Source of the DNA: Escherichia phage PECP20
Sequence record: OQ873415.1
DNA: 64,000 nucleotides
Strand: one strand, 5' to 3'
The first letter of the stretch is position 1; the number at the start of each line of letters is the position of its first letter. Positions 15,614 through 26,520 of the stretch are shown here, piece after piece. A program made the position numbers and the translations under genes. Below the pieces are notes generated by a model. It saw only the letters and a list, made by a program, of their open reading frames with translations, did not search any database and was not told the origin of the DNA.

Positions 15614-15955
15614 TTAAAAGAATTTAAATTTTTTCTTGGTCCGTTCATTAAAAGCTTGTTGTACTTGCATTGTAACACATTTTTCAACATGTGGTGCAAG
15701 TTCTGCTTTTCTGTCCTGGTCAAGAACTGCAAAGTCCATTACGATTTTACCATCAACCCAGTCTAGTTTTGTAATATAGACTATATGATGAGAACCATCT
15801 TCAAGTGTAATCAGAATCTCTTGAATGACATTTTCCATTGCTGAACGGATAATTTTAAGAGATTCATTAAACACTCGTTCTTTGCGAATGTCTTCCCCTT
15901 CCGAAGAAGGGGATTCATCAACGATTTCTAGATTTAAATCATCGAGATTATTCAT
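15614..15955 (-). CDS. hypothetical protein in the gene 40 position
   Basis: In-frame ATG (MNNLDD) at 15955 overlaps uvsX stop by 8 nt; track start 16075 would sit inside uvsX. Confidence 0.5.
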   Translation of the reverse strand: MNNLDDLNLEIVDESPSSEGEDIRKERVFNESLKIIRSAMENVIQEILITLEDGSHHIVYITKLDWVDGKIVMDFAVLDQDRKAELAPHVEKCVTMQVQQAFNERTKKKFKFF

Positions 15956-17120
15956 CGAAATCTTCCATTTCGTCAAGGTCGTTTTCAATATCTGCTGCAG
16001 ACGGAGCATCAGAAGCTTTAACCGGAACTTTAGTTGTTGCTTTGCAATTAATAAGGTCGTTAACAGCGTCATCAACTTCTTTAATAGAAGAGATAGCGCC
16101 TAGTTTATATTTAGTTTCAATTGCATCTCGGAAAGGTTTGTGTTTAAACAACGGTCCCCAGAATTCTACACAATCAGTAGCTTTAGCACGCCACGATTTC
16201 TCTTCACGAATCATTTCACCTGTTTCTTCGTCAAGGAATTCACGAGCATACCAACCAGCTTTAGGCTTAACAACAAATCCAATTTCAGTTGCCATTTCTA
16301 ACAAGCCACTGAATGGATCGATACCGCCGTCAAAATTAACCGTGATTGGGAAAGTAGATTTCTCTTTAACTGTACGAGATTTTTCTGCTTTCAACGTGAA
16401 GTCATAACCGGTCAATTCTGTACCTTCTTTAACCTGACGTTTAGAGATAAAGAATACAGTGTTAGCAGAGTAAAGAATACCTGTACCACCACCCATAATC
16501 TCTTTAGGATATAGTCCGCCGATTTCCATTGCTGTATGGTTGATTGCAACACACGGAATATCTTTAATAGTCAGATAAGGAGTCACAATACGGAACAGAG
16601 ATTTAAGTGCCTTAGCACGAGACATATCACCTACGACTTTCTCGTTCAATGCATCTTCGGTTTCTTTCTTAGATGCAGTATTACCGATTGAATCGATAAA
16701 GATAATAACTTTATCACCGCGTTCAATAGCGTCAAGCTGATTAGTCATATCAACTTTAAGTTGTTCTACAGATTGAATCGGAGTATGAACTACACGGTCT
16801 AAATCAACACCCATTGAACGAAAATAAGATTCTGAAGCACCGAATTCCGAGTCATAAAACAAACAGATTGCATCTTTATATTTCTTCATATACGCTGCAA
16901 CCATAGTCAGCCCAAACAATGTTTTAAAGTGTTTAGAAGGAGCAGCAAAAATAGTTAAGCCTGATTGCAATCCTGCATTCAGAGCACCACCTAGTGCGAT
17001 ATTCAACATCGGAATACGAGTAGGGACTTCATCACGATTATTAAACAGCTTAGACTTAGTCAAGTCTGCAGTCATTTTAGAAGTAGAAGCTTTAATCAGA
17101 CGAGATTTTAAATCAGACAT
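15948..17120 (-). CDS. uvsX: UvsX recombinase (RecA/Rad51 family)
   Basis: 390 aa; near-colinear with T4 UvsX as recalled. Confidence 0.95.
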   Translation of the reverse strand: MSDLKSRLIKASTSKMTADLTKSKLFNNRDEVPTRIPMLNIALGGALNAGLQSGLTIFAAPSKHFKTLFGLTMVAAYMKKYKDAICLFYDSEFGASESYFRSMGVDLDRVVHTPIQSVEQLKVDMTNQLDAIERGDKVIIFIDSIGNTASKKETEDALNEKVVGDMSRAKALKSLFRIVTPYLTIKDIPCVAINHTAMEIGGLYPKEIMGGGTGILYSANTVFFISKRQVKEGTELTGYDFTLKAEKSRTVKEKSTFPITVNFDGGIDPFSGLLEMATEIGFVVKPKAGWYAREFLDEETGEMIREEKSWRAKATDCVEFWGPLFKHKPFRDAIETKYKLGAISSIKEVDDAVNDLINCKATTKVPVKASDAPSAADIENDLDEMEDFDE

Positions 17121-17218: not shown

Positions 17219-17767
17219 TTAACGAGCCCATTTGATGATTTCTGTAATCAAACCATTACGTTCGCTTGCATTAAATCCTATAATTTTGTTAGCACCATCA
17301 TGATTAAGTAATTGATACGTTTGGATTTTGTTATGAATTGCAAACTCTTCAAAATGTGAAATGACTGTATTAAAACCGAATGAAGACAAAGTAATAAGGT
17401 CGTCTTCAAAACTTTCAGTCATTTCATTACGTGTTAAAATAATTGTGAACACATCATGGTTTTGGCAAAGACGAACATAGTCCTGTTCATAAACATCAAG
17501 AACAGAGTCCGCATCTTGCCGAATACGTCCATAAACCCAGTTACTAATATATCCACGGTCTAACAGATAAATCTTAGTAGGGTCTAAATAATTCAACATC
17601 GTTTCGAAACAGCCAACTTCATTTCGAGACTTAACATCGAAACGTCCATCAACTGTTCGTTTAGGAAAATCAATCTTTACATATCTTTCACTAATTTCCA
17701 TTATGTCATTAATGAAAGTTGTTTTACCAGCATTATCTGGGCCGTCTACTAAAATAATTTTAGCCAT
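17219..17767 (-). CDS. thymidylate-kinase-like P-loop nucleotide kinase
   Basis: 182 aa; P-loop GPDNAGKTT; DRGY...Y lid-like motif; occupies part of the T4 beta-gt slot. Confidence 0.7.
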   Translation of the reverse strand: MAKIILVDGPDNAGKTTFINDIMEISERYVKIDFPKRTVDGRFDVKSRNEVGCFETMLNYLDPTKIYLLDRGYISNWVYGRIRQDADSVLDVYEQDYVRLCQNHDVFTIILTRNEMTESFEDDLITLSSFGFNTVISHFEEFAIHNKIQTYQLLNHDGANKIIGFNASERNGLITEIIKWAR

Positions 17768-17768
17768 T

Positions 17769-18668
17769 TTATTCCTCGATTACGACATCTTCGTATTTAG
17801 GTATATTATATGGTGAAGAAATTAAAGCATTAAAGTAGATGAACTCACCAAGACCTGGATGGAATACTTCTTCAGGATTTTCGAAATATTGAATCTTCGG
17901 GCGTCCTTTAAGAATTTGATAGTACTCAGTTTTAGTTGGTTTAAAAATTCGAATCAGCGCTTCTTCAGGATACTTATTTCTGTCGAAGCTATTATTTGGA
18001 TCGGTTATATAAAGCGGTTGACCTAATTGAATTGCACATTCAACCACTTGTTCAAAACGATAACATGGGTCACTAATTCGAAATGGATGAAAAATACCAT
18101 CTAGATGAATAGGAGCCAAATCACCTACAAGACGCTGCATGATGGAAGGACGTATAACTTTCTGAGTTACGATAATCTTATTACCATCTGCACCTGCGTT
18201 AACCAGCACTTCTTTTTGACGTTCATTCAACACGGTAGTTTGAAGTGAACGATTAACTGACAACATATCGGTTTTTAAGAATTCGTCAATATAAAAACGT
18301 TGTTTATTAGGGTCTGCAGTGATATTGAAATTGAATTCTACATCAAAAGCGCCGCCATAACCAGTGATATCTGTGATTAGAAAATCACAATCATAATAAT
18401 CAATTAATGAATCAACCACAAATTCATTTTCAGTCCAGAAATATTTACGAGTGTTATACGCGTTATCTTTATACCATAATGGAACAAACTTAAATTCTGG
18501 GAAAAGACGTTCGCATTCTTTAATATCAGATGCATTACGTGGATATGTAATCACATCACCCGGATTAGCACGGTGCAAATGAAGTTGGAAGTTGCCATCC
18601 TTAAGGATAGCATACTGTCCAGTTTCATAAGACCGCATACTCAAGATTGGTACGCGGAAAATAGCCAT
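17769..18668 (-). CDS. hypothetical protein (299 aa) in the beta-glucosyltransferase slot
   Basis: ORF between kinase and gene 42 homolog; no similarity to T4 beta-gt recognised. Confidence 0.6.
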   Translation of the reverse strand: MAIFRVPILSMRSYETGQYAILKDGNFQLHLHRANPGDVITYPRNASDIKECERLFPEFKFVPLWYKDNAYNTRKYFWTENEFVVDSLIDYYDCDFLITDITGYGGAFDVEFNFNITADPNKQRFYIDEFLKTDMLSVNRSLQTTVLNERQKEVLVNAGADGNKIIVTQKVIRPSIMQRLVGDLAPIHLDGIFHPFRISDPCYRFEQVVECAIQLGQPLYITDPNNSFDRNKYPEEALIRIFKPTKTEYYQILKGRPKIQYFENPEEVFHPGLGEFIYFNALISSPYNIPKYEDVVIEE

Positions 18669-19384
18669 TAGTCAAGGAATCCTTTAACATAATCAAAATC
18701 ACGTTCAAACACATGGGCGCTTACCATGGTATGAGTATAATCACCAACTTCTACACCGCATTCGTTAGCGATATAATGAAGTAATTTTCCTTGGAGATAA
18801 AAATCCAACTGCATAACAACAGCACAGTTCTGAGAACGCATATGACAGTGGGTATAAAGCTTACCATCACGAATATAATAAGTTACTGAGTCAGTACATG
18901 GATATTCAAGTGTTTCGTCCGAATCAAGCAAAGCCTGATCAGAACTTTCTAGAATTTGGAACACAACTCTTCGAGAGTTAGGTTTTTCTTTAAGTTCTTT
19001 TAGAAGAGTTGGTAATTGGGCCGCAATGCGAGGGCCATAGAAAGTGTTGAAGTTCGCCGGCAAAACATCTGATTTTGGTTTAGAAATAAATTTAGCGACA
19101 TTAGGATATGCCTTAAACGCTTCTTCTGCGTTGGTACCACCAGAAATCATAAACTTCCAGAAGTCTTCGGCATATTCATAAGAGATGCGGTTAATACGTG
19201 GGTCGGTCATTTTGAATGATGATGGAGTGTCAACAACTACTGTCATAGACCCAATTTCATTACAACGTCCAATACGAGAATCAGTTACGAATTCGGGGTT
19301 TTCTAAAATTTCACGATTGACTGCTTTAAATGCGGTTTGAAAATCTGCGGCTTTGATATATTTCATTGTGTTATGTTTTCCCAT
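18668..19384 (-). CDS. 42: dCMP hydroxymethylase-like (thymidylate synthase fold)
   Basis: 238 aa; thymidylate synthase-like core (PCTDSV...MRSQNCAVV); syntenic with T4 gene 42 but diverged. Confidence 0.7.
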   Translation of the reverse strand: MGKHNTMKYIKAADFQTAFKAVNREILENPEFVTDSRIGRCNEIGSMTVVVDTPSSFKMTDPRINRISYEYAEDFWKFMISGGTNAEEAFKAYPNVAKFISKPKSDVLPANFNTFYGPRIAAQLPTLLKELKEKPNSRRVVFQILESSDQALLDSDETLEYPCTDSVTYYIRDGKLYTHCHMRSQNCAVVMQLDFYLQGKLLHYIANECGVEVGDYTHTMVSAHVFERDFDYVKGFLD

Positions 19385-19426: not shown

Positions 19427-19666
19427 TTATTTGAATTTCTTGACAATGTTGATATAACGTAAAGCTTCAGAATCTATACTTCCAAGAACACTATGAAGGA
19501 ATGCATCAGTGTAGTATTCCAATTGAACAGGTTCTTTAATCACTTTAGCCGCTTTGGTTTCAAACAGGCCCATAAGGGCCTTTTTAAGAATTTGTTCGTT
19601 AGTGTTCAGTTTCATAGTCAAAATCTCTTCGTTAAGTTTATAATTAAAACTTTTTCTAGAAATCAT
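19427..19666 (-). CDS. hypothetical protein (79 aa)
   Basis: ORF; 4-nt overlap with upstream gene. Confidence 0.5.
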   Translation of the reverse strand: MISRKSFNYKLNEEILTMKLNTNEQILKKALMGLFETKAAKVIKEPVQLEYYTDAFLHSVLGSIDSEALRYINIVKKFK

Positions 19667-20823
19667 TCCGGGTACCTCAAAGCGTCATCAGAGTTAGTTA
19701 TATCAATAATAGATATGGAGTTTTCTGCTAACCCGTTTTTAGATAATTGACGTTTATAATACCTTTCACAATATGTACACGTTGACCCACAGATTTCATT
19801 AGCACAATCAAAATCTGGATGTCTGAACCACCTTTTTTCTAAAAAGCCATCTAACAAAGAGGTTTCAATATTTACTGTATGTGAAAACTCAGTCTCATTT
19901 TCAAGAGTGAAAATAGTCTCTAAAGGCTTCCACAGTTCTAACAAATTACCTTCAAACTTTTCAGAAGCGTATGCTTCAAGAACTTTCAAAATGTAGTCTG
20001 TGCTACCTGTACGTCCTGAAACTTTGAATTGAGTGATACCAATATCATTATAAAGTTTCAAATCTTGAGGACGAACAAAACGAGTTCTCAACCAGTTAAA
20101 TGGGTCTGTATCACGAGCTTTAATACAGTGCTGCATAGGATATCCATTTAAGGATTTAGCATCATCAGCGGTAACATCAGTACTATGGAAAATATAGCAA
20201 GAGTCACGATAACTACAATGTGTTGTATACCCTTTACCAGCATTAGAACAGAACTCATTTACAAGAACTTCAAATATTATATTGTTCTTATTGCAAAACT
20301 CTGCTGCACGCTTCAGGAAAGAAACTGAACGGTTCTTATGAATTCCGCAACAGACCTTTTTGATGTTATATTGGTCATGTAAGTATTTGATTTGAGTTAC
20401 CGCATCGACATGTAGAATTGTTGAAACTTCAATCTCAATATCTTTATTGACTTCACGAACAATTTCCATAACAACAGGGTTAGCGATAGTAATACGCCAT
20501 ACGCCTATTGACCAAAGATACTGAACATAATCCTGAATAGCTTTCTTCTTCCACTCAACTAGTTCTCTTTTTGAACCAGGATTTATCGTGTTGAGTGTAT
20601 AGTTAAAGCAAATACCTAATTCGTTACAACGTTTAACGTAGTCTTCTAACATCTTTTTGTCAACGTCAGGAAGCCTAAAATCAGGTCTGGCTGCTACAAA
20701 AGCCATTTCTCTTGTAGAGCCATATACTTCGTTTATCAAGCTATTAGGATAGGTTTTATTGAGCTCTACGATTTTATCAAGAAGAGCTAAATCAAAATTC
20801 GTTCCGATTTTAAAAGTATTCAT
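19663..20823 (-). CDS. hypothetical Cys-rich protein, possible Fe-S enzyme
   Basis: 386 aa; C-terminal C-x4-C-x3-C-x-Y-C cluster plus scattered Cys; family not assigned. Confidence 0.7.
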   Translation of the reverse strand: MNTFKIGTNFDLALLDKIVELNKTYPNSLINEVYGSTREMAFVAARPDFRLPDVDKKMLEDYVKRCNELGICFNYTLNTINPGSKRELVEWKKKAIQDYVQYLWSIGVWRITIANPVVMEIVREVNKDIEIEVSTILHVDAVTQIKYLHDQYNIKKVCCGIHKNRSVSFLKRAAEFCNKNNIIFEVLVNEFCSNAGKGYTTHCSYRDSCYIFHSTDVTADDAKSLNGYPMQHCIKARDTDPFNWLRTRFVRPQDLKLYNDIGITQFKVSGRTGSTDYILKVLEAYASEKFEGNLLELWKPLETIFTLENETEFSHTVNIETSLLDGFLEKRWFRHPDFDCANEICGSTCTYCERYYKRQLSKNGLAENSISIIDITNSDDALRYPE

Positions 20824-20879: not shown

Positions 20880-21281
20880 TTATAGATTTGGTTTATATGA
20901 TTTAAATGTTTCGAATTCGCCTTTATTCATAAGAGCTTTGAATTCGTCAGGACGCATAGCTTTGTCGTCGATAATCCAATCATATACTGGTTTATGTGTT
21001 AGCAAATTATGGTACTTCAAACCAATGTTTTCCAAGTTCTGAATCAGACTTGGGAGAATGTCAATTGCTATACGACCAGGACCTACCGACTTCATACCAC
21101 GGGCAGTGTAAAGCGTTATGGTATGCCCTGCATCATACAGGGCATTAATGGCAGACACCATTTCGACGTCTGGTTTGAAGTTCACGTAATCACGATTGTT
21201 ATTCCACTCTGTTATACAATCATCGACATCAAAACAAAGATTAAGCATGTTTTCTACACGGTGCATTAGATTCGTTCCCAT
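20880..21281 (-). CDS. HAD-superfamily phosphatase (sugar-phosphate phosphatase-like)
   Basis: 133 aa; N-terminal FDVDDCIT (DxD nucleophile motif). Confidence 0.65.
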   Translation of the reverse strand: MGTNLMHRVENMLNLCFDVDDCITEWNNNRDYVNFKPDVEMVSAINALYDAGHTITLYTARGMKSVGPGRIAIDILPSLIQNLENIGLKYHNLLTHKPVYDWIIDDKAMRPDEFKALMNKGEFETFKSYKPNL

Positions 21282-22951
21282 TGATGAGTGATATCGCCGC
21301 CGATTGGACGATAGGAAACACCAGTTTCTTTATCAGTTAGTACCCATTTACCAGGATTTTTTGTAATCAGAGTAGCCGTTACAGGTTCTGCTACGTCATA
21401 ACTAATAGAGCCGTCTTGAAGTACACGGCCCATGTTACGTAATTGCTTAGTCAGAAGTTCCATACCTTTATAATATGCGGCAACCGCTTTAAGTGGATTA
21501 TTCTTGAAATAACCACCTAATGCAATCCAGATAATTGCTACTGCCAAATGATGATACTCGTTAAACGAACTCATCTTTCCATATTTGTAAACTAATGGAT
21601 TGATGTTAATAGTCAAATTACAAGTTGTTTCATCAATAGTAAACTGACCCCAGGTCGGATTAGCATTGAATTCATCATAACCTGAAACAGCATAAAGCAC
21701 TTTAGCTTCATCATACAATTTTGGCCCGTAAATCTTGGTTTCACCAAAATATCCACGAGGGTCGATAAACTTGACTTCGCCGTTATCGGTAATCATAGTA
21801 TTACTGAAGTTCGGGTCACCATGAATAACAGAGTACTGTCCCTGAGAACGGTTATGATAACGAATAAGATGTTCTAAAGCTTGTTTCAACATTGGCTTCA
21901 GACGTCCAATCTTAGTGTAGTTCACATGTGTGATTTTACCAAATGAATCAATCAATGGCTGAATGCTTTCACAACGATCAATAACTTTCGTATAGAACTC
22001 TTTAGTGAAATCACGGCGAACAGTTTCAGGACTTACAAAATAAGTGTCCGTGCTGAATTTCAGTGCATCTAAAATTGCATCAACAATTTGTGGACGAGCA
22101 AGACTTGATTTGGATTTAATATATTCAAATGCCGGCTTACCTTTAATACGTTCCATTTCAAAATTATTTTCATTTACCGAAACTAACTGAGGAACTGAAT
22201 CTGATTTCACTTTCAAATACCATGAAATCTCATCTTTTTGAAGAGCTCGACCTTGTTCGGTTAACGCGAATTTAGTTACAGTTTCTTCGCCAATTTCAAC
22301 TGCATTAAAACTACGATTCAGTTCACGAACTTCATGAGCCTTTTCAAGTTTAGGCATATCACCTAAATCAATTAGATTCATAAGCTCTGATTTATTGAAT
22401 GCACTGCCGTAAAGGAATTCTACGAAATCACGACCTTTGCAGTATTCGTGAATTTCCTCATCAGTAGAACCCATGTAGAATTCCCAGTCTTTGAACTGAT
22501 AAATTCCTACAACATTACCACCTGTTGAACCTACGTTAGTGATATTTTCACCATCGAAATTATATCGACATTCATCACCCTTAACATAGATTGCGTTAAC
22601 ATTCCAAGACCATGAACCAAAGTCAGGAATAATATCACACCAGTTAACAATTACGTTATGGCCATCTAAATCTTTGTATAATTTAGCAAGAGCATAAGCA
22701 GAACCATACGCTTCATCAACTGTACGAATAGTCACATTGAACCCTTCTTGCTCGCAATAAGCTCGAACAGTTTCAGCAAATTTTGAATGAACTACTACAA
22801 TAATTTCATCTGCGCCAAGGTCAGAATAAATTGTATACAAATTGCTCAGAATAGTGTCTTGTTTATAGTTAACAAGCACCTTAGGAATATGGTGAGTAAT
22901 TGGATATAAACGAGTTGCTAATCCAGCACCAAGAATAACAGCTTTTTTCAT
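21266..22951 (-). CDS. bifunctional sugar-1-phosphate nucleotidyltransferase / APH-type sugar kinase
   Basis: 561 aa; N-terminal MKKAVILGAGLATRLYP (RmlA-like); C-terminal HGDPNFSN...IDPRG (aminoglycoside/choline-kinase-like). Confidence 0.8.
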   Translation of the reverse strand: MKKAVILGAGLATRLYPITHHIPKVLVNYKQDTILSNLYTIYSDLGADEIIVVVHSKFAETVRAYCEQEGFNVTIRTVDEAYGSAYALAKLYKDLDGHNVIVNWCDIIPDFGSWSWNVNAIYVKGDECRYNFDGENITNVGSTGGNVVGIYQFKDWEFYMGSTDEEIHEYCKGRDFVEFLYGSAFNKSELMNLIDLGDMPKLEKAHEVRELNRSFNAVEIGEETVTKFALTEQGRALQKDEISWYLKVKSDSVPQLVSVNENNFEMERIKGKPAFEYIKSKSSLARPQIVDAILDALKFSTDTYFVSPETVRRDFTKEFYTKVIDRCESIQPLIDSFGKITHVNYTKIGRLKPMLKQALEHLIRYHNRSQGQYSVIHGDPNFSNTMITDNGEVKFIDPRGYFGETKIYGPKLYDEAKVLYAVSGYDEFNANPTWGQFTIDETTCNLTININPLVYKYGKMSSFNEYHHLAVAIIWIALGGYFKNNPLKAVAAYYKGMELLTKQLRNMGRVLQDGSISYDVAEPVTATLITKNPGKWVLTDKETGVSYRPIGGDITHQWERI

Positions 22952-22993: not shown

Positions 22994-23136
22994 TAGTTAA
23001 AGCATTCATACTTTGCCTGTAGACCAATCATAATCCATCCAATTACAAGTGTTGGAATCATTACTGGAGCCGTTAAGCCCCAGTAGATAGTCATGGCAAG
23101 CATCAATAGTAAAAGTCCTATTGTTATTGCTTTCAT
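22994..23136 (-). CDS. small hydrophobic peptide (47 aa)
   Basis: ATGA overlap with stop of upstream SIS gene; hydrophobic; below ORF-track size cutoff. Confidence 0.35.
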
Positions 23137-23768
23137 TGTTCGCCTCGTAACATGGCACCTAGTGCACCACCAGGGTGGAACTTAAGGAAGTCATTAGAGG
23201 TAAATCCACGTTCAGACGAAAGGTTGATAGCAAACGTATCGATAAGCGCTAACAACAATGTAGTGGACATGGTCGGAGCCAGAGAATTCTCATCAACCTC
23301 TACCGCGATGCCTGTACAGAACGTATAATCAAAAAGAGCTTCGTATTCTTGCGGAATGTCAGGGTTACAATGTAACAGAATCTGTTTAACCTGAGGACGA
23401 ATCATACGAAGATGTTTAGCAACACCTATCATTTCTTCAGTCTTACCAGAACGACTGATGTGAACTAATACATCATTAGGTGCAATAAATCCTGCGTCGC
23501 CATGAGAATAATGCCCGGTGTTCAAATACATGCTAGGAATACCTAGTGAAGCAAAAGTCTCGGAAGCTTTAGTTGCGATATTAGCGTTCTTACCAACACC
23601 TGTAATAATTACTCGGCTTTCATAATTACTCAGTCCAGGGCGACGAAGAGTTTCAAGAATAGCATTATATCGGGCAGAGTTTTGACTAATTACTTTAGCC
23701 ATAGTGGCAAGAGATGAAGCTTGTTTTACGATTGCGTCAATAGCGATAGTGATTGGTGTAGTTTTCAT
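23133..23768 (-). CDS. SIS-domain sugar-phosphate isomerase (arabinose-5-phosphate isomerase-like, no CBS domains)
   Basis: 211 aa; ITGVGKNANIATK...HGDAG...ISRSGKT...HPGGALG closely resembles KdsD/GutQ SIS domain. Confidence 0.8.
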   Translation of the reverse strand: MKTTPITIAIDAIVKQASSLATMAKVISQNSARYNAILETLRRPGLSNYESRVIITGVGKNANIATKASETFASLGIPSMYLNTGHYSHGDAGFIAPNDVLVHISRSGKTEEMIGVAKHLRMIRPQVKQILLHCNPDIPQEYEALFDYTFCTGIAVEVDENSLAPTMSTTLLLALIDTFAINLSSERGFTSNDFLKFHPGGALGAMLRGEQ

Positions 23769-23808: not shown

Positions 23809-26520
23809 TCAAAAATCGAACATATCGAACAGAGATGCTTTCTTCTCGTAATCGAGTTTCGCTGCTGATGTGAATCCTTCAAGTGGTTTAATAAATGTCT
23901 TCTCAAGGAGAACAGTGTAGTCCATCCAATGAAGTACGTCGTCTTTAATTAAATCTGTGATTTCAGTACCAGAAGGCCATGCGATACATTTATCACCGAA
24001 CGGGTTTCCATCACGTAAAGGCAGAACGTATACCTTTTCGCCTTCTACAACTTGTGGAGCATCAATATTACCTTTGATAGCTCTGTTATATGTCAGAATT
24101 CCACGAATATGGAACGGGCATTTAGGACCAGGGAATCCACCAACGTCATATTTAGCAATGTTATTCGCAGAAGATACTGACGCGATGCTAATATAATTCA
24201 ATTGACGGAATTCTTTTTCAAACTCTTTAAAATATTCTTGTAATGATTCTTCACCTTCTTGAAGCATACGACGAATACATTCTTTAAGAGCTTTCTGTAC
24301 TGCTTTAGGGGTCGAAGATTTCTGTGTTTCGAGACCCATGATTTTGAGTTTAGGCTCAGCGTATCTGGTTCCTTCCATATCCCACACGTTTAATGCATAA
24401 CGTTTCTTACCAGTCCAGAATCCACCAATACCTTTAGAACCGAGTGGAGGACCAGCAATAGCTTCTCGGTCCATGAACATCAAATGTTGCTTATTATTCA
24501 TGTATTCACACATTTCACGGAAACCTCTATCAATAGCCGGTTCCATACGTTCACGAGCGAACTTATCTAAGAAGTCTACCCAATGGTTGGTATCACGGAA
24601 TTTAGATTCACCAACCTTATCAATAATTTTATCTGCAGATACGTAAATAGAGTCTGTATCACCATAAAGAACGAAAGCTTCACCTTCTGTACCACAAACT
24701 TCGTTCAGATATTCATTAACTTTACGTTCAATCCACTGTAAAGCCATTTGACCAAATGTTGTGATTGCAGTTGCATTACGCAAATCGTAATAACGGAACC
24801 AAACGTTACCAAGTGCACCATAAAGCGAGTTGATGAGCAATTTACGGTTAATTTGTGCAGTCATACCTGCAACTTCAGTACGTTGAGCTCTAAACAACAT
24901 TTCATTAAGAGATTTAGCAGACAACTTTTTAATCTTTTCTTTAATCTCATCGCTGAAGTCGAAACGATAATCAACATCTAATGGTTCGTCAACAGAAAGA
25001 TTAGGATTATGCAACGCCTCTTTAATTATTTCACCATTACGTTGAGCCGCAAGCATGTAACCTTTATGTTCTTTACGTTGATTAAAGACCTTAGTGATTT
25101 CAGTTGGAACTACACCATCACGGTCTTTATAATACATCATGCCATTAGGAGAACAACTGTACACATCTGAAGGACGTTCAGCGATTGCGTTAATATAATC
25201 ATGCAGTGGAGCTACTTTAAACGTTCCTGCTATTGTTTCCGGGCTAATATTCACTTGGCGAATAATACTTGGATACAGGGATGTAAGGTCGAAACTCATT
25301 ACATATTTGTATCGATTTGGAATAGGTTCCTTAACAAAAGCGCCAGGATAAGGTTGAACCGGGTGAGAACGACCTTGTGGAATCACCTTGTTCTGCTCTT
25401 TAAGGCTATTAAAAATAATAGCATCCCATGTTTTAATTGGGCTAAACACAGATTGAATCTGTATCTTAGCATAATAACCCATGTCCAAACTCAAGTTGAT
25501 GAACTGACGCTTAGCATCAATTTGCAATACACGATACACGTCGATAATGTTATAAGAAATATATCGTTGGTGATTGCTTTCACGAAGCTTAGAAATAGGG
25601 CCGTCATATTTCAGTTTACCAACGTTCAATTCAAATTCTGAAATGTAATCCAGAGAATACGACGGTTGATTGGTAAAAGAGAATTTTTTGTAAAGGTCAA
25701 TGTAATCAAGAACAGAGATACCGAACAATGTAATGATTTCACGAGAACCATACATGTTTTCGATAACTTTAACACGAGTTTTACGATGTGGTGATAAACG
25801 TTTTGCTGTGGATTCACCAAAAATATTCTTGATTCTGTTATACACATATGGAATATCAAATGACTCAACGTTCCATCCAGTCAAAATGACAGGAGTTTTC
25901 TGTTGCCAGAAGTTGAGATATTCCATCAACAATTCTTTTTCGTTATCGAACGGCATATAAATGATTTTATCGATAATTTCGGATGGAACTTCATCACCAC
26001 CTTGTTCTTGAAGCTTAGCAGCGATTTCAATAGACCATTCTTCTACATTACCATATGGAGAATTCAATAGATCAAATACGTAGAACCTGTCGTCAATTGA
26101 GTCATAATGAGTGATAGCATCAATCGGATGTTTTGCTTGTGACGGCTCAGGGAACCCATCCGGAGATGTTACTTCGATGTCGAAGTTAGCCACACGAATT
26201 TTTGTATGGTCGTATTTGATTTCATAGTTATAAGTGTCAGACAAATACGCCAATTTGAAATCGTCCATGCCAAGTGCTTCAAGTCCGATATCTTCCATGC
26301 GTTTAATCCATTGGGAGGCATCACGCATATTAGCGAACAACTTACGAGTACACGGCTTACCGTAGATATCGAAATATTTCGTAGCCTGACTTTCTGGACA
26401 ATGTGCAAACAACGATGGCTTATACTCTACTTCACGAGTACGTTCACGGCCATTAGAATCGATGTAACGTTCAAAAATTGAATCACCAATCTGTTCAACC
26501 GTTAAGTAAAATTCTTTCAT
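23809..26520 (-). CDS. 43: DNA polymerase (family B, gp43)
   Basis: 903 aa; exo motifs (FDIEV), polymerase motifs (DxxSLYPSII, YGDTDS); N-terminus matches RB69 gp43 as recalled. Confidence 0.98.
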   Translation of the reverse strand: MKEFYLTVEQIGDSIFERYIDSNGRERTREVEYKPSLFAHCPESQATKYFDIYGKPCTRKLFANMRDASQWIKRMEDIGLEALGMDDFKLAYLSDTYNYEIKYDHTKIRVANFDIEVTSPDGFPEPSQAKHPIDAITHYDSIDDRFYVFDLLNSPYGNVEEWSIEIAAKLQEQGGDEVPSEIIDKIIYMPFDNEKELLMEYLNFWQQKTPVILTGWNVESFDIPYVYNRIKNIFGESTAKRLSPHRKTRVKVIENMYGSREIITLFGISVLDYIDLYKKFSFTNQPSYSLDYISEFELNVGKLKYDGPISKLRESNHQRYISYNIIDVYRVLQIDAKRQFINLSLDMGYYAKIQIQSVFSPIKTWDAIIFNSLKEQNKVIPQGRSHPVQPYPGAFVKEPIPNRYKYVMSFDLTSLYPSIIRQVNISPETIAGTFKVAPLHDYINAIAERPSDVYSCSPNGMMYYKDRDGVVPTEITKVFNQRKEHKGYMLAAQRNGEIIKEALHNPNLSVDEPLDVDYRFDFSDEIKEKIKKLSAKSLNEMLFRAQRTEVAGMTAQINRKLLINSLYGALGNVWFRYYDLRNATAITTFGQMALQWIERKVNEYLNEVCGTEGEAFVLYGDTDSIYVSADKIIDKVGESKFRDTNHWVDFLDKFARERMEPAIDRGFREMCEYMNNKQHLMFMDREAIAGPPLGSKGIGGFWTGKKRYALNVWDMEGTRYAEPKLKIMGLETQKSSTPKAVQKALKECIRRMLQEGEESLQEYFKEFEKEFRQLNYISIASVSSANNIAKYDVGGFPGPKCPFHIRGILTYNRAIKGNIDAPQVVEGEKVYVLPLRDGNPFGDKCIAWPSGTEITDLIKDDVLHWMDYTVLLEKTFIKPLEGFTSAAKLDYEKKASLFDMFDF

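Follow-up and report, generated by a model that had tools for sequence, protein, structure and literature searches.

A putative Tmk-fold nucleotide kinase in the 5-hydroxycytosine DNA-modification cluster of an RB69-like phage

What would a T4-like phage, which already carries the dNMP kinase of gene 1, phosphorylate with a second nucleotide kinase placed beside its DNA-modification genes? The question is raised by the initial annotation of the window, by which we mean the whole 64,000-nucleotide stretch of Escherichia phage PECP20 DNA (OQ873415.1) that was analyzed, where a thymidylate-kinase-like gene was placed at positions 17219-17767. An ORF with an ATG start does span exactly 17219..17767 on the minus strand, and it encodes a 182 amino acid P-loop kinase of the Tmk fold, the ortholog of RB69 gp45, with which the modification operon ends. 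The Walker A motif is found near the N terminus (G9-P-D-N-A-G-K-T16). The ATG is positioned 1 nt beyond the TAA stop codon of an ORF for a 299 amino acid glycosyltransferase, and a GAGGA Shine-Dalgarno sequence for the kinase is located inside the 3′ tail of that ORF; translation of the two genes is therefore probably coupled. On the other side, 98 nt separate the kinase stop codon from uvsX. A terminator-like hairpin over the stop codon (−9.5 kcal/mol, z −1.3 versus shuffled sequence) was not significant and was rejected, and a consensus scan found no terminator at this position.

The kinase gene is genuine and evolves under purifying selection. Its product is identical to RB69p045 at 179/182 positions (98%), and the codon changes between the two comprise 10 that are synonymous and 3 that are non-synonymous (dN/dS 0.07). 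A tblastn search with the kinase recovered 343 phage records, each with at least 80% protein coverage, and the gene is intact in 343/343. In source annotations it bears the name "hypothetical protein" or "thymidylate kinase" and nothing else. The surrounding 5.5 kb is 99.6% identical to Escherichia phage CAU_ECP01 and at least 98% identical to many Mosigvirus genomes, and by sequence the window is assigned to Mosigvirus, the RB69-like T-even phages.

The modification cluster is encoded on the minus strand between the gene 43 DNA polymerase (23809..26520), which forms its upstream flank, and the uvsX recombinase (15948..17120), which forms its downstream flank. In the order of transcription, gene 43 is followed by an arabinose-5-phosphate isomerase (23133..23768; RB69 gp55, identified from the ORF and annotations), a bifunctional nucleotidyltransferase/sugar kinase of 561 amino acids (21266..22951; RB69 gp52:53, AfhE-like, identified from the ORF and the annotation of RB69 and of the 99.6%-identical record), a HAD-type phosphatase (20880..21281; RB69 gp51, AfhF-like; TIGR01689 at E 1.9e-13, phrog_1238), a peptidase-U32-family protein of 386 amino acids (19663..20823; RB69 gp50; PF01136 at 42 bits, phrog_5757), a small ORF of 79 amino acids (19427..19666; RB69 gp49), a thymidylate synthase (TS) homolog (18668..19384; RB69 gp48 ortholog; PF00303 at 57 bits), the 299 amino acid glycosyltransferase ORF (17769..18668; RB69 gp46:47, proposed arabinosyltransferase 1; phrog_3891), the kinase, and uvsX. 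In T4, the counterpart interval from gene 43 to uvsX is limited to imm, imm.1, gene 42, beta-gt, and segA, with beta-gt and segA alone between uvsX and gene 42, and the kinase is absent. The kinase had been described as adjacent to a gene 42 homolog, and while the two genes do share an operon, the glycosyltransferase gene intervenes between them.

Several neighbors of the kinase merit comment in their own right. The HAD phosphatase is reported to strip the 5-phosphate from arabinofuranose-1,5-bisphosphate (PMC13326640). RB69p046 and RB69p047 are considered to be one gene that was split by a sequencing error (PMC13326640), and the single intact 299 amino acid ORF in the window supports this; in some records this glycosyltransferase is misannotated as "RNA polymerase binding protein." Homologs of the 79 amino acid ORF were found only in Mosigvirus, where several are truncated to 47-58 amino acids. 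It occupies the position of a chorismate mutase in related phages, for example Klebsiella phage MY02, but it was rejected as a chorismate mutase, having no CM_2 match and no detectable relation to the MY02 chorismate mutase.

The TS homolog indicates which nucleotide is likely to be relevant. When it is aligned to E. coli ThyA, C146 is kept, position 169 is Asn (D169N), and position 177 is Asp (N177D); the D169N replacement is diagnostic of 5-hydroxy-dCMP synthases (PMC13326640). The enzyme that was taken for a gene 42 homolog, and thereby for an hm-dCMP context, is thus not a dCMP hydroxymethylase but carries the 5-hydroxy-dCMP synthase signature (Asn at 169, Asp at 177), and the nucleotide of interest is therefore 5-hydroxy-dCMP and not hm-dCMP. 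Public records still call the TS homolog a hydroxymethylase or a thymidylate synthase. In RB69, the DNA contains mono- and di-arabinosyl-5-hydroxycytosine and not arabinosyl-hmC (Lee et al., NAR 2026, PMC13326640), and RB69 gp48 is a flavin-binding protein that makes 5-hydroxy-dCMP with oxygen from O2 (PMC13326640). The same authors credited the gp45-gp55 region with arabinosyl transfer, with the formation of NDP-arabinose, and with what they call "pre-replicative synthesis of 5hodCTP" (PMC13326640).

That the kinase is a putative nucleotide kinase of this pathway is already known from papers of 2021 and 2026. A list of 2021 assigned RB69p045 to the pathway as a putative thymidylate kinase or nucleotide kinase (PMC8056088), and in 2026 RB69 gp45 (RB69p045, NP_861735.1) and its counterpart DLP3 gp78, of which the former is the ortholog of the kinase described here, were labeled as the "nucleotide kinase" of arabinosyl-5-hydroxycytosine clusters (PMC13326640); in both papers the label was obtained from structure searches only. 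The window kinase matches phrog_761, which includes RB69 gp45-type kinases, at E 5.6e-45. The Afh genes of phage HY126 were reportedly named by He et al. in Nat Chem Biol in 2026, and our literature search, which did not reach that possible source, found no enzymatic assay of the kinase. Full-text literature on the Afh names, LC53, and arabinofuranosylation yielded nothing on the kinase, and a phage Tn-seq preprint reported gene essentiality for neither LC53 nor Bas46.

The relationship of the kinase to thymidylate kinase holds at the level of fold and superfamily only. In a Pfam scan the window protein had no match to PF02223 at E ≤ 1, with AAA matches that were sub-threshold only, and against TIGR00041, the NCBIfam dTMP kinase model, it scored 16.4 bits from the P-loop alone, where the cut-off is 83.25. 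A profile comparison of the kinase with E. coli Tmk by hhalign aligned 24 columns, again the P-loop only, and a broader family profile was needed. An HMMER scan of 1.84 billion representative proteins defined a small kinase family of 317 proteins (E ≤ 1e-3), of which 45 reach E ≤ 1e-10, and 38 diverse members with 21-44% identity were taken for the family profile and for the analysis of conservation. PF02223 (Thymidylate_kin) is matched by 23/38 of these members at E < 1e-3. Against the sequences of solved structures, the 38-member profile matched SPbeta YorR best (6e-10), followed by the Tmk enzymes of yeast (4.4e-9), Aquifex (4.9e-9), vaccinia (9.7e-8), and S. aureus (1.7e-7, over nearly full length). 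An AF2 model of the kinase has a pLDDT of 87.8. The structures nearest to the kinase are all nucleotide kinases, with sugar kinases among the lower-ranked matches, and the closest by sequence among proteins of solved structure is YorR (PDB 2AXP/3KB2), which is uncharacterised and is encoded outside any 5-hydroxycytosine cluster. The description of the kinase as thymidylate-kinase-like is accordingly sound for the fold and superfamily (profile E 4e-9 to 2e-7 to Tmk), but it does not extend to the family level, where the thresholds of PF02223 and TIGR00041 are missed.

Conserved positions in the family correspond to functional motifs of Tmk. Residues G9, G14, K15, D70, and R71 are invariant in the 38 members, conservation reaches at least 90% at D11, N76, Y79, D122, and D123, and the F34-P-K-R-T38 segment and R113 are conserved in closer relatives. 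In Tmk they fall in the acidic-residue P-loop, in the FPxRS and DR(Y)..S..Y motifs, and at the beginning of the LID. The P-loop reads G9-P-D11-N-A-G14-K15-T16 and a second motif, D70-R71-G-Y, is found at the end of strand 3; the FPKRT and DR-x-x-S-x-x-Y motifs align with FPERS and DRYVYSGVAY in yeast Tmk. In Tmk the acidic residue of the P-loop (E12 in E. coli, D15 in human) binds the 3′-OH of the deoxyribose. Canonical thymidylate kinase (EC 2.7.4.9; PF02223, TIGR00041) has in common with the phage kinase the fold, an acidic residue in the P-loop, a motif of the FPxR type, a DR with S..Y behind it, and an Arg that comes after strand 4. The two also differ. Identity is only 13-19% and the kinase scores below both curated models, its nucleotide-monophosphate-binding region is ∼20 residues shorter than that of yeast Tmk with one helix missing in the alignment, its P-loop has Asn where Tmk has Arg (type I) or Gly (type II), and its distribution is tied to a cytosine-modifying enzyme. 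In the profile alignments no arginine of the kinase falls on the thymine-O4 position of canonical Tmk: thymine is recognized there by a stacking Phe and by an Arg that hydrogen-bonds O4 (F74 and R78 in E. coli), and this Arg aligns with E50 when yeast Tmk is the template or with N49 when Aquifex Tmk is the template, at moderate posterior probability, with R48 adjoining these two positions. Because this position depends on the template, base specificity is not readable from the kinase sequence. Residues of the predicted base-binding helix vary across the wider family.

The occurrence of the kinase across phages follows that of the TS homolog closely. When tblastn phage records were counted by genus name, with totals of 377 for the TS homolog and 343 for the kinase, the two counts were the same for phages of Escherichia (176 and 176), Acinetobacter (57 and 57), Shigella (15 and 15), Enterobacter (9 and 9), Serratia (9 and 9), Proteus (7 and 7), and Yersinia (6 and 6), and for Klebsiella they were 26 for the TS homolog and 25 for the kinase. 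The surplus TS records are mostly from 22 Rhizobium phages, and they also include Tenacibaculum PTm5 and Sphingomonas PAU. In Tenacibaculum phage PTm5 the TS homolog has the D169N replacement, and no member of the kinase family was found. The kinase shares its cluster with sugar-nucleotide genes, a glycosyltransferase, and a TS homolog of the D169N type in the window, in five further phage genera, and in three metagenomic contigs. In 6/6 of the T4-like loci where the interval is visible, the kinase is within the gene 43-uvsX cluster, though the gene order is shuffled. It comes after the glycosyltransferase in Mosigvirus, Acinetobacter phage Ac42, and one metagenomic T4-like contig; in Dhakavirus MX01, Bragavirus PM2, and Klebsiella phage MY02 (Marfavirus) it is preceded by the HAD phosphatase gene, whose stop codon overlaps the kinase start codon; and it directly follows or overlaps the TS homolog in two further metagenomic contigs. 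The TS homologs at all these kinase loci carry both D169N and N177D. The proposed link of the kinase to the modification genes is upheld by its cluster position in all loci examined and by the near one-to-one genus match with the TS homolog; within T4-like phages its co-occurrence with TS homologs of the D169N type is strict. It belongs to the base-modification cluster and is no housekeeping gene that strayed there.

A useful comparator is Rhizobium phage RL38J1, whose DNA contains galactosyl/glucosyl-5-hydroxycytosine (PMC13326640). Its gene order is TS, glycosyltransferase, and a 211 amino acid kinase, which has a Tmk-like fold (PMC13326640), and it has a separate gp1-like kinase as well. 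The two are encoded at L017:14792-15427 (the Tmk-fold kinase, after the TS and glycosyltransferase genes) and L017:18664-19227 (annotated as a gp1-like dNMP kinase). RL38J1 gp214 was rejected as a member of the kinase family, with an hhalign probability of 44% and an HMM E-value of 1e-4, the same as that of E. coli Tmk, and on profile comparison it is best regarded as a positional analog with a Tmk-like fold and not as an ortholog. In RL38J1 a hexose is used instead of arabinose while the order of TS, glycosyltransferase, and Tmk-fold kinase is kept, and the kinase is therefore tied to the base and not to the sugar. We conclude that the kinase is a core part of the 5-hydroxycytosine module in T4-like phages and that it tracks the base and not a particular sugar.

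The kinase is also additional to gene 1, as had been proposed together with a position of gene 1 outside the window. No gene-1 homolog was detected within the window (best tblastn E 1.5), and in RB69 gene 1 (gp159) is located at 77,877-78,611, ∼53 kb from the kinase. The window also contains a tk gene. The dNMP kinase of T4 gene 1 (PF21448; RB69 gp159) follows the logic proposed here for the kinase, in which a phage-encoded enzyme brings a modified dCMP into the dNTP pool, and there is no sequence or profile similarity between the two. Straboviridae and Pootjesviridae have each retained both types of kinase. The two types in RL38J1 suggest different roles, and the occurrence of the pair in this hexosyl-5-hydroxycytosine phage family suggests that the pairing is functional and not accidental.

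Our preferred explanation, to which we give an even chance of being correct, is that the kinase is an active P-loop nucleotide kinase of the Tmk fold that belongs to the 5-hydroxycytosine DNA-modification module. It would transfer the γ-phosphate of ATP to the 5′-phosphate of a modified pyrimidine deoxynucleotide supplied by the neighboring enzyme, so that 5-hydroxy-dCMP would be converted to 5-hydroxy-dCDP, or a close derivative would be phosphorylated; host NDP kinase would then produce the triphosphate, the phage polymerase would build 5-hydroxycytosine into DNA, and the glycosyltransferases would add arabinose after incorporation. The most likely substrate is thus 5-hydroxy-dCMP or a derivative of it. 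An unusual nucleotide as substrate, one of the possibilities offered by the initial annotation, is the best-supported option, though with 5-hydroxy-dCMP in place of hm-dCMP. In favor of this explanation are the conserved catalytic residues, the Tmk-type motifs, the cluster context, the matching genus counts, the analogy with RL38J1, and the published assignment of gp45-gp55, which implies such a role (PMC13326640). The main consideration against it is that RB69 gp159, the gene-1 homolog, already phosphorylates 5-hydroxy-dCMP to the diphosphate in vitro and raises its incorporation in E. coli (PMC13326640), and the proposed activity of the kinase would therefore be redundant. In addition, PTm5 has a D169N TS homolog without a member of the kinase family, the kinase is translationally coupled to the sugar phosphatase and not to the TS homolog in three genera, residues of the predicted base-binding helix vary in the wider family, and both kinase types are kept in RL38J1.

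The Tmk fold and motifs, together with the database name "thymidylate kinase," would also be compatible with an ordinary dTMP kinase that is not specifically tied to the modification and serves to raise the supply of dTTP for an AT-rich genome. We consider this unlikely, since the kinase occurs only in phages that have a D169N TS homolog and is absent from T4-type phages, whose need for dTTP is the same, since dTMP is already served by gene 1 and host Tmk (according to the RB69 annotation), and since the kinase scores below both curated Tmk models and no arginine is aligned with the thymine-O4-binding Arg.

To our knowledge, phage DNA glycosylation is always post-replicative, and this precedent argues against a further alternative, in which the neighboring glycosyltransferase adds the first sugar to 5-hydroxy-dCMP before replication and the kinase, instead of gp1, accepts the bulky product. 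This alternative would account for the trio of TS homolog, glycosyltransferase, and kinase, which has the same order here and in RL38J1, for the coupling of the kinase to the glycosyltransferase gene in the window, and for the coexistence of both kinase types in two phage families. [quoted passage not shown] We nevertheless regard it as quite unlikely. DNA is the acceptor for the second and third arabinoses (PMC13326640), plain 5-hydroxy-dC enters DNA when the synthase is expressed alone or with gp1 (PMC13326640), and the kinase is not beside a glycosyltransferase gene in other genera (MX01, PM2, and MY02). If it were true, part of the hypermodification would be built before replication, breaking the post-replicative rule, and the retention of both kinase types in two unrelated phage families would be explained.

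The overlap of the kinase start with the HAD phosphatase stop in Dhakavirus, Bragavirus, and Marfavirus, and the inclusion of sugar kinases in the P-loop kinase fold, where they are found among the lower-ranked structure matches, raise the alternative of a kinase in the sugar-donor branch that acts on a pentose phosphate or in UMP/UDP recycling. This is improbable, because the isomerase, the bifunctional kinase/uridylyltransferase, and the phosphatase are reported to be sufficient for the formation of UDP-arabinofuranose, a route that is complete without the kinase (PMC13326640), because the closest structures are nucleotide kinases only, and because the analogous kinase is found in RL38J1, a phage that uses hexose. 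The completeness of the UDP-arabinofuranose route likewise leaves the earlier suggestion of another small-molecule substrate weak.

The 5-hmdU DNA kinase 5-HMUDK (PF18748; Pseudomonas phage M6 gp54) is similarly a small P-loop kinase (∼185 amino acids) encoded in a base-hypermodification cluster near a TS homolog, and by analogy the kinase might phosphorylate 5-hydroxycytosine in DNA or prime the first glycosylation there. Glycosyltransferases that are inactive by themselves on 5hoC-DNA in vitro (PMC13326640), and the fusion of distant kinase relatives to an MBD4-like HhH-GPD DNA-glycosylase domain, would be in keeping with action at the DNA level. We find this highly improbable. There is no homology between 5-HMUDK and the kinase beyond the P-loop: PF18748 is matched by M6 gp54 (65 bits) and by 0/38 members of the family, and hhalign against M6 gp54 aligned 23 P-loop columns only. 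In addition, 5-HMUDK targets the hydroxyl group of a base in DNA and thereby generates a leaving group, whereas an O-glycoside needs none; the final product keeps a C5-O-sugar ether with the 5hoC oxygen (PMC13326640), and leaving-group chemistry is therefore unneeded. The fused domain, for its part, resembles a true glycosylase with its catalytic Asp and not the amino-acid:DNA transferase family. Equally improbable is a deoxynucleoside salvage kinase that would form the monophosphate from 5-hydroxy-dC or dC. In its favor, the protein of solved structure that matches best by sequence, YorR, is a prophage kinase that is uncharacterised, and the folds of NadR-type nucleoside kinase and dNK are nearby; the dNK model (PF01712) is not matched by the kinase and dNK is not its closest fold.

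The kinase-glycosylase fusions constitute a subfamily of distant kinase relatives (E 1e-19 to 4e-6) in which the MBD4-like HhH-GPD domain is C-terminal. They are encoded at L007:8001-9074 and L014:127-1092 and include proteins P0058, P0060, P0065, P0067, P0069, P0074, P0076, and P0116. The fused domain matches MBD4 structures at E 1e-9, and its catalytic Asp is kept in 7/8. MBD4 removes deaminated cytosine derivatives opposite G, suggesting by analogy that the fused domain may be involved in repair of 5-hydroxyuracil:G in such genomes. No MBD4-like domain was found in the window. In metagenomic cluster L007 the fusion adjoins a D169N TS homolog, and it is followed, before an SIS isomerase gene, by a gene for an NADPH-dependent FMN reductase (L007:9068-9613; FMN_red, 45 bits), which is in keeping with a 5-hydroxy-dCMP synthase that depends on flavin and requires it in reduced form.

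A separate observation concerns the U32 protein of the cluster (19663-20823, minus strand), which we considered together with L003:7911-8297 and L004:6688-6933. U32 enzymes such as TrhP and UbiU/V hydroxylate without O2, taking the oxygen from prephenate (PMC6599085, PMC10990095). A type-II chorismate mutase, the enzyme type that makes prephenate, is encoded directly beside the U32 gene in Klebsiella phage MY02. The cluster of Proteus phage PM2 likewise encodes a chorismate mutase, upstream of the TS homolog and with a homing endonuclease between it and the U32 gene, and in LC53 and KLB31 annotated chorismate mutases adjoin the TS homolog. The U32 gene is absent from phages of the strict aerobe Acinetobacter, but it is also absent from Dhakavirus. 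Since the oxygen introduced by the TS-homolog hydroxylase comes from O2, the U32 protein and chorismate mutase could by analogy provide an anaerobic route to 5-hydroxycytosine for gut phages. In the work on RB69, gp50 was called a "sugar or heterocycle reductase," and U32, chorismate, and prephenate were not mentioned (PMC13326640).

In the literature surveyed, the kinase is one of the few universally conserved genes of the cluster whose role is putative. Its substrate bears on why two nucleotide kinases are kept and on whether the first sugar is added to the nucleotide or to DNA. The pathway to which the kinase belongs, in which glycosylated 5-hydroxycytosine takes the place of cytosine, was worked out only in 2025-2026, and it protects phages that are therapeutic candidates from restriction and CRISPR.
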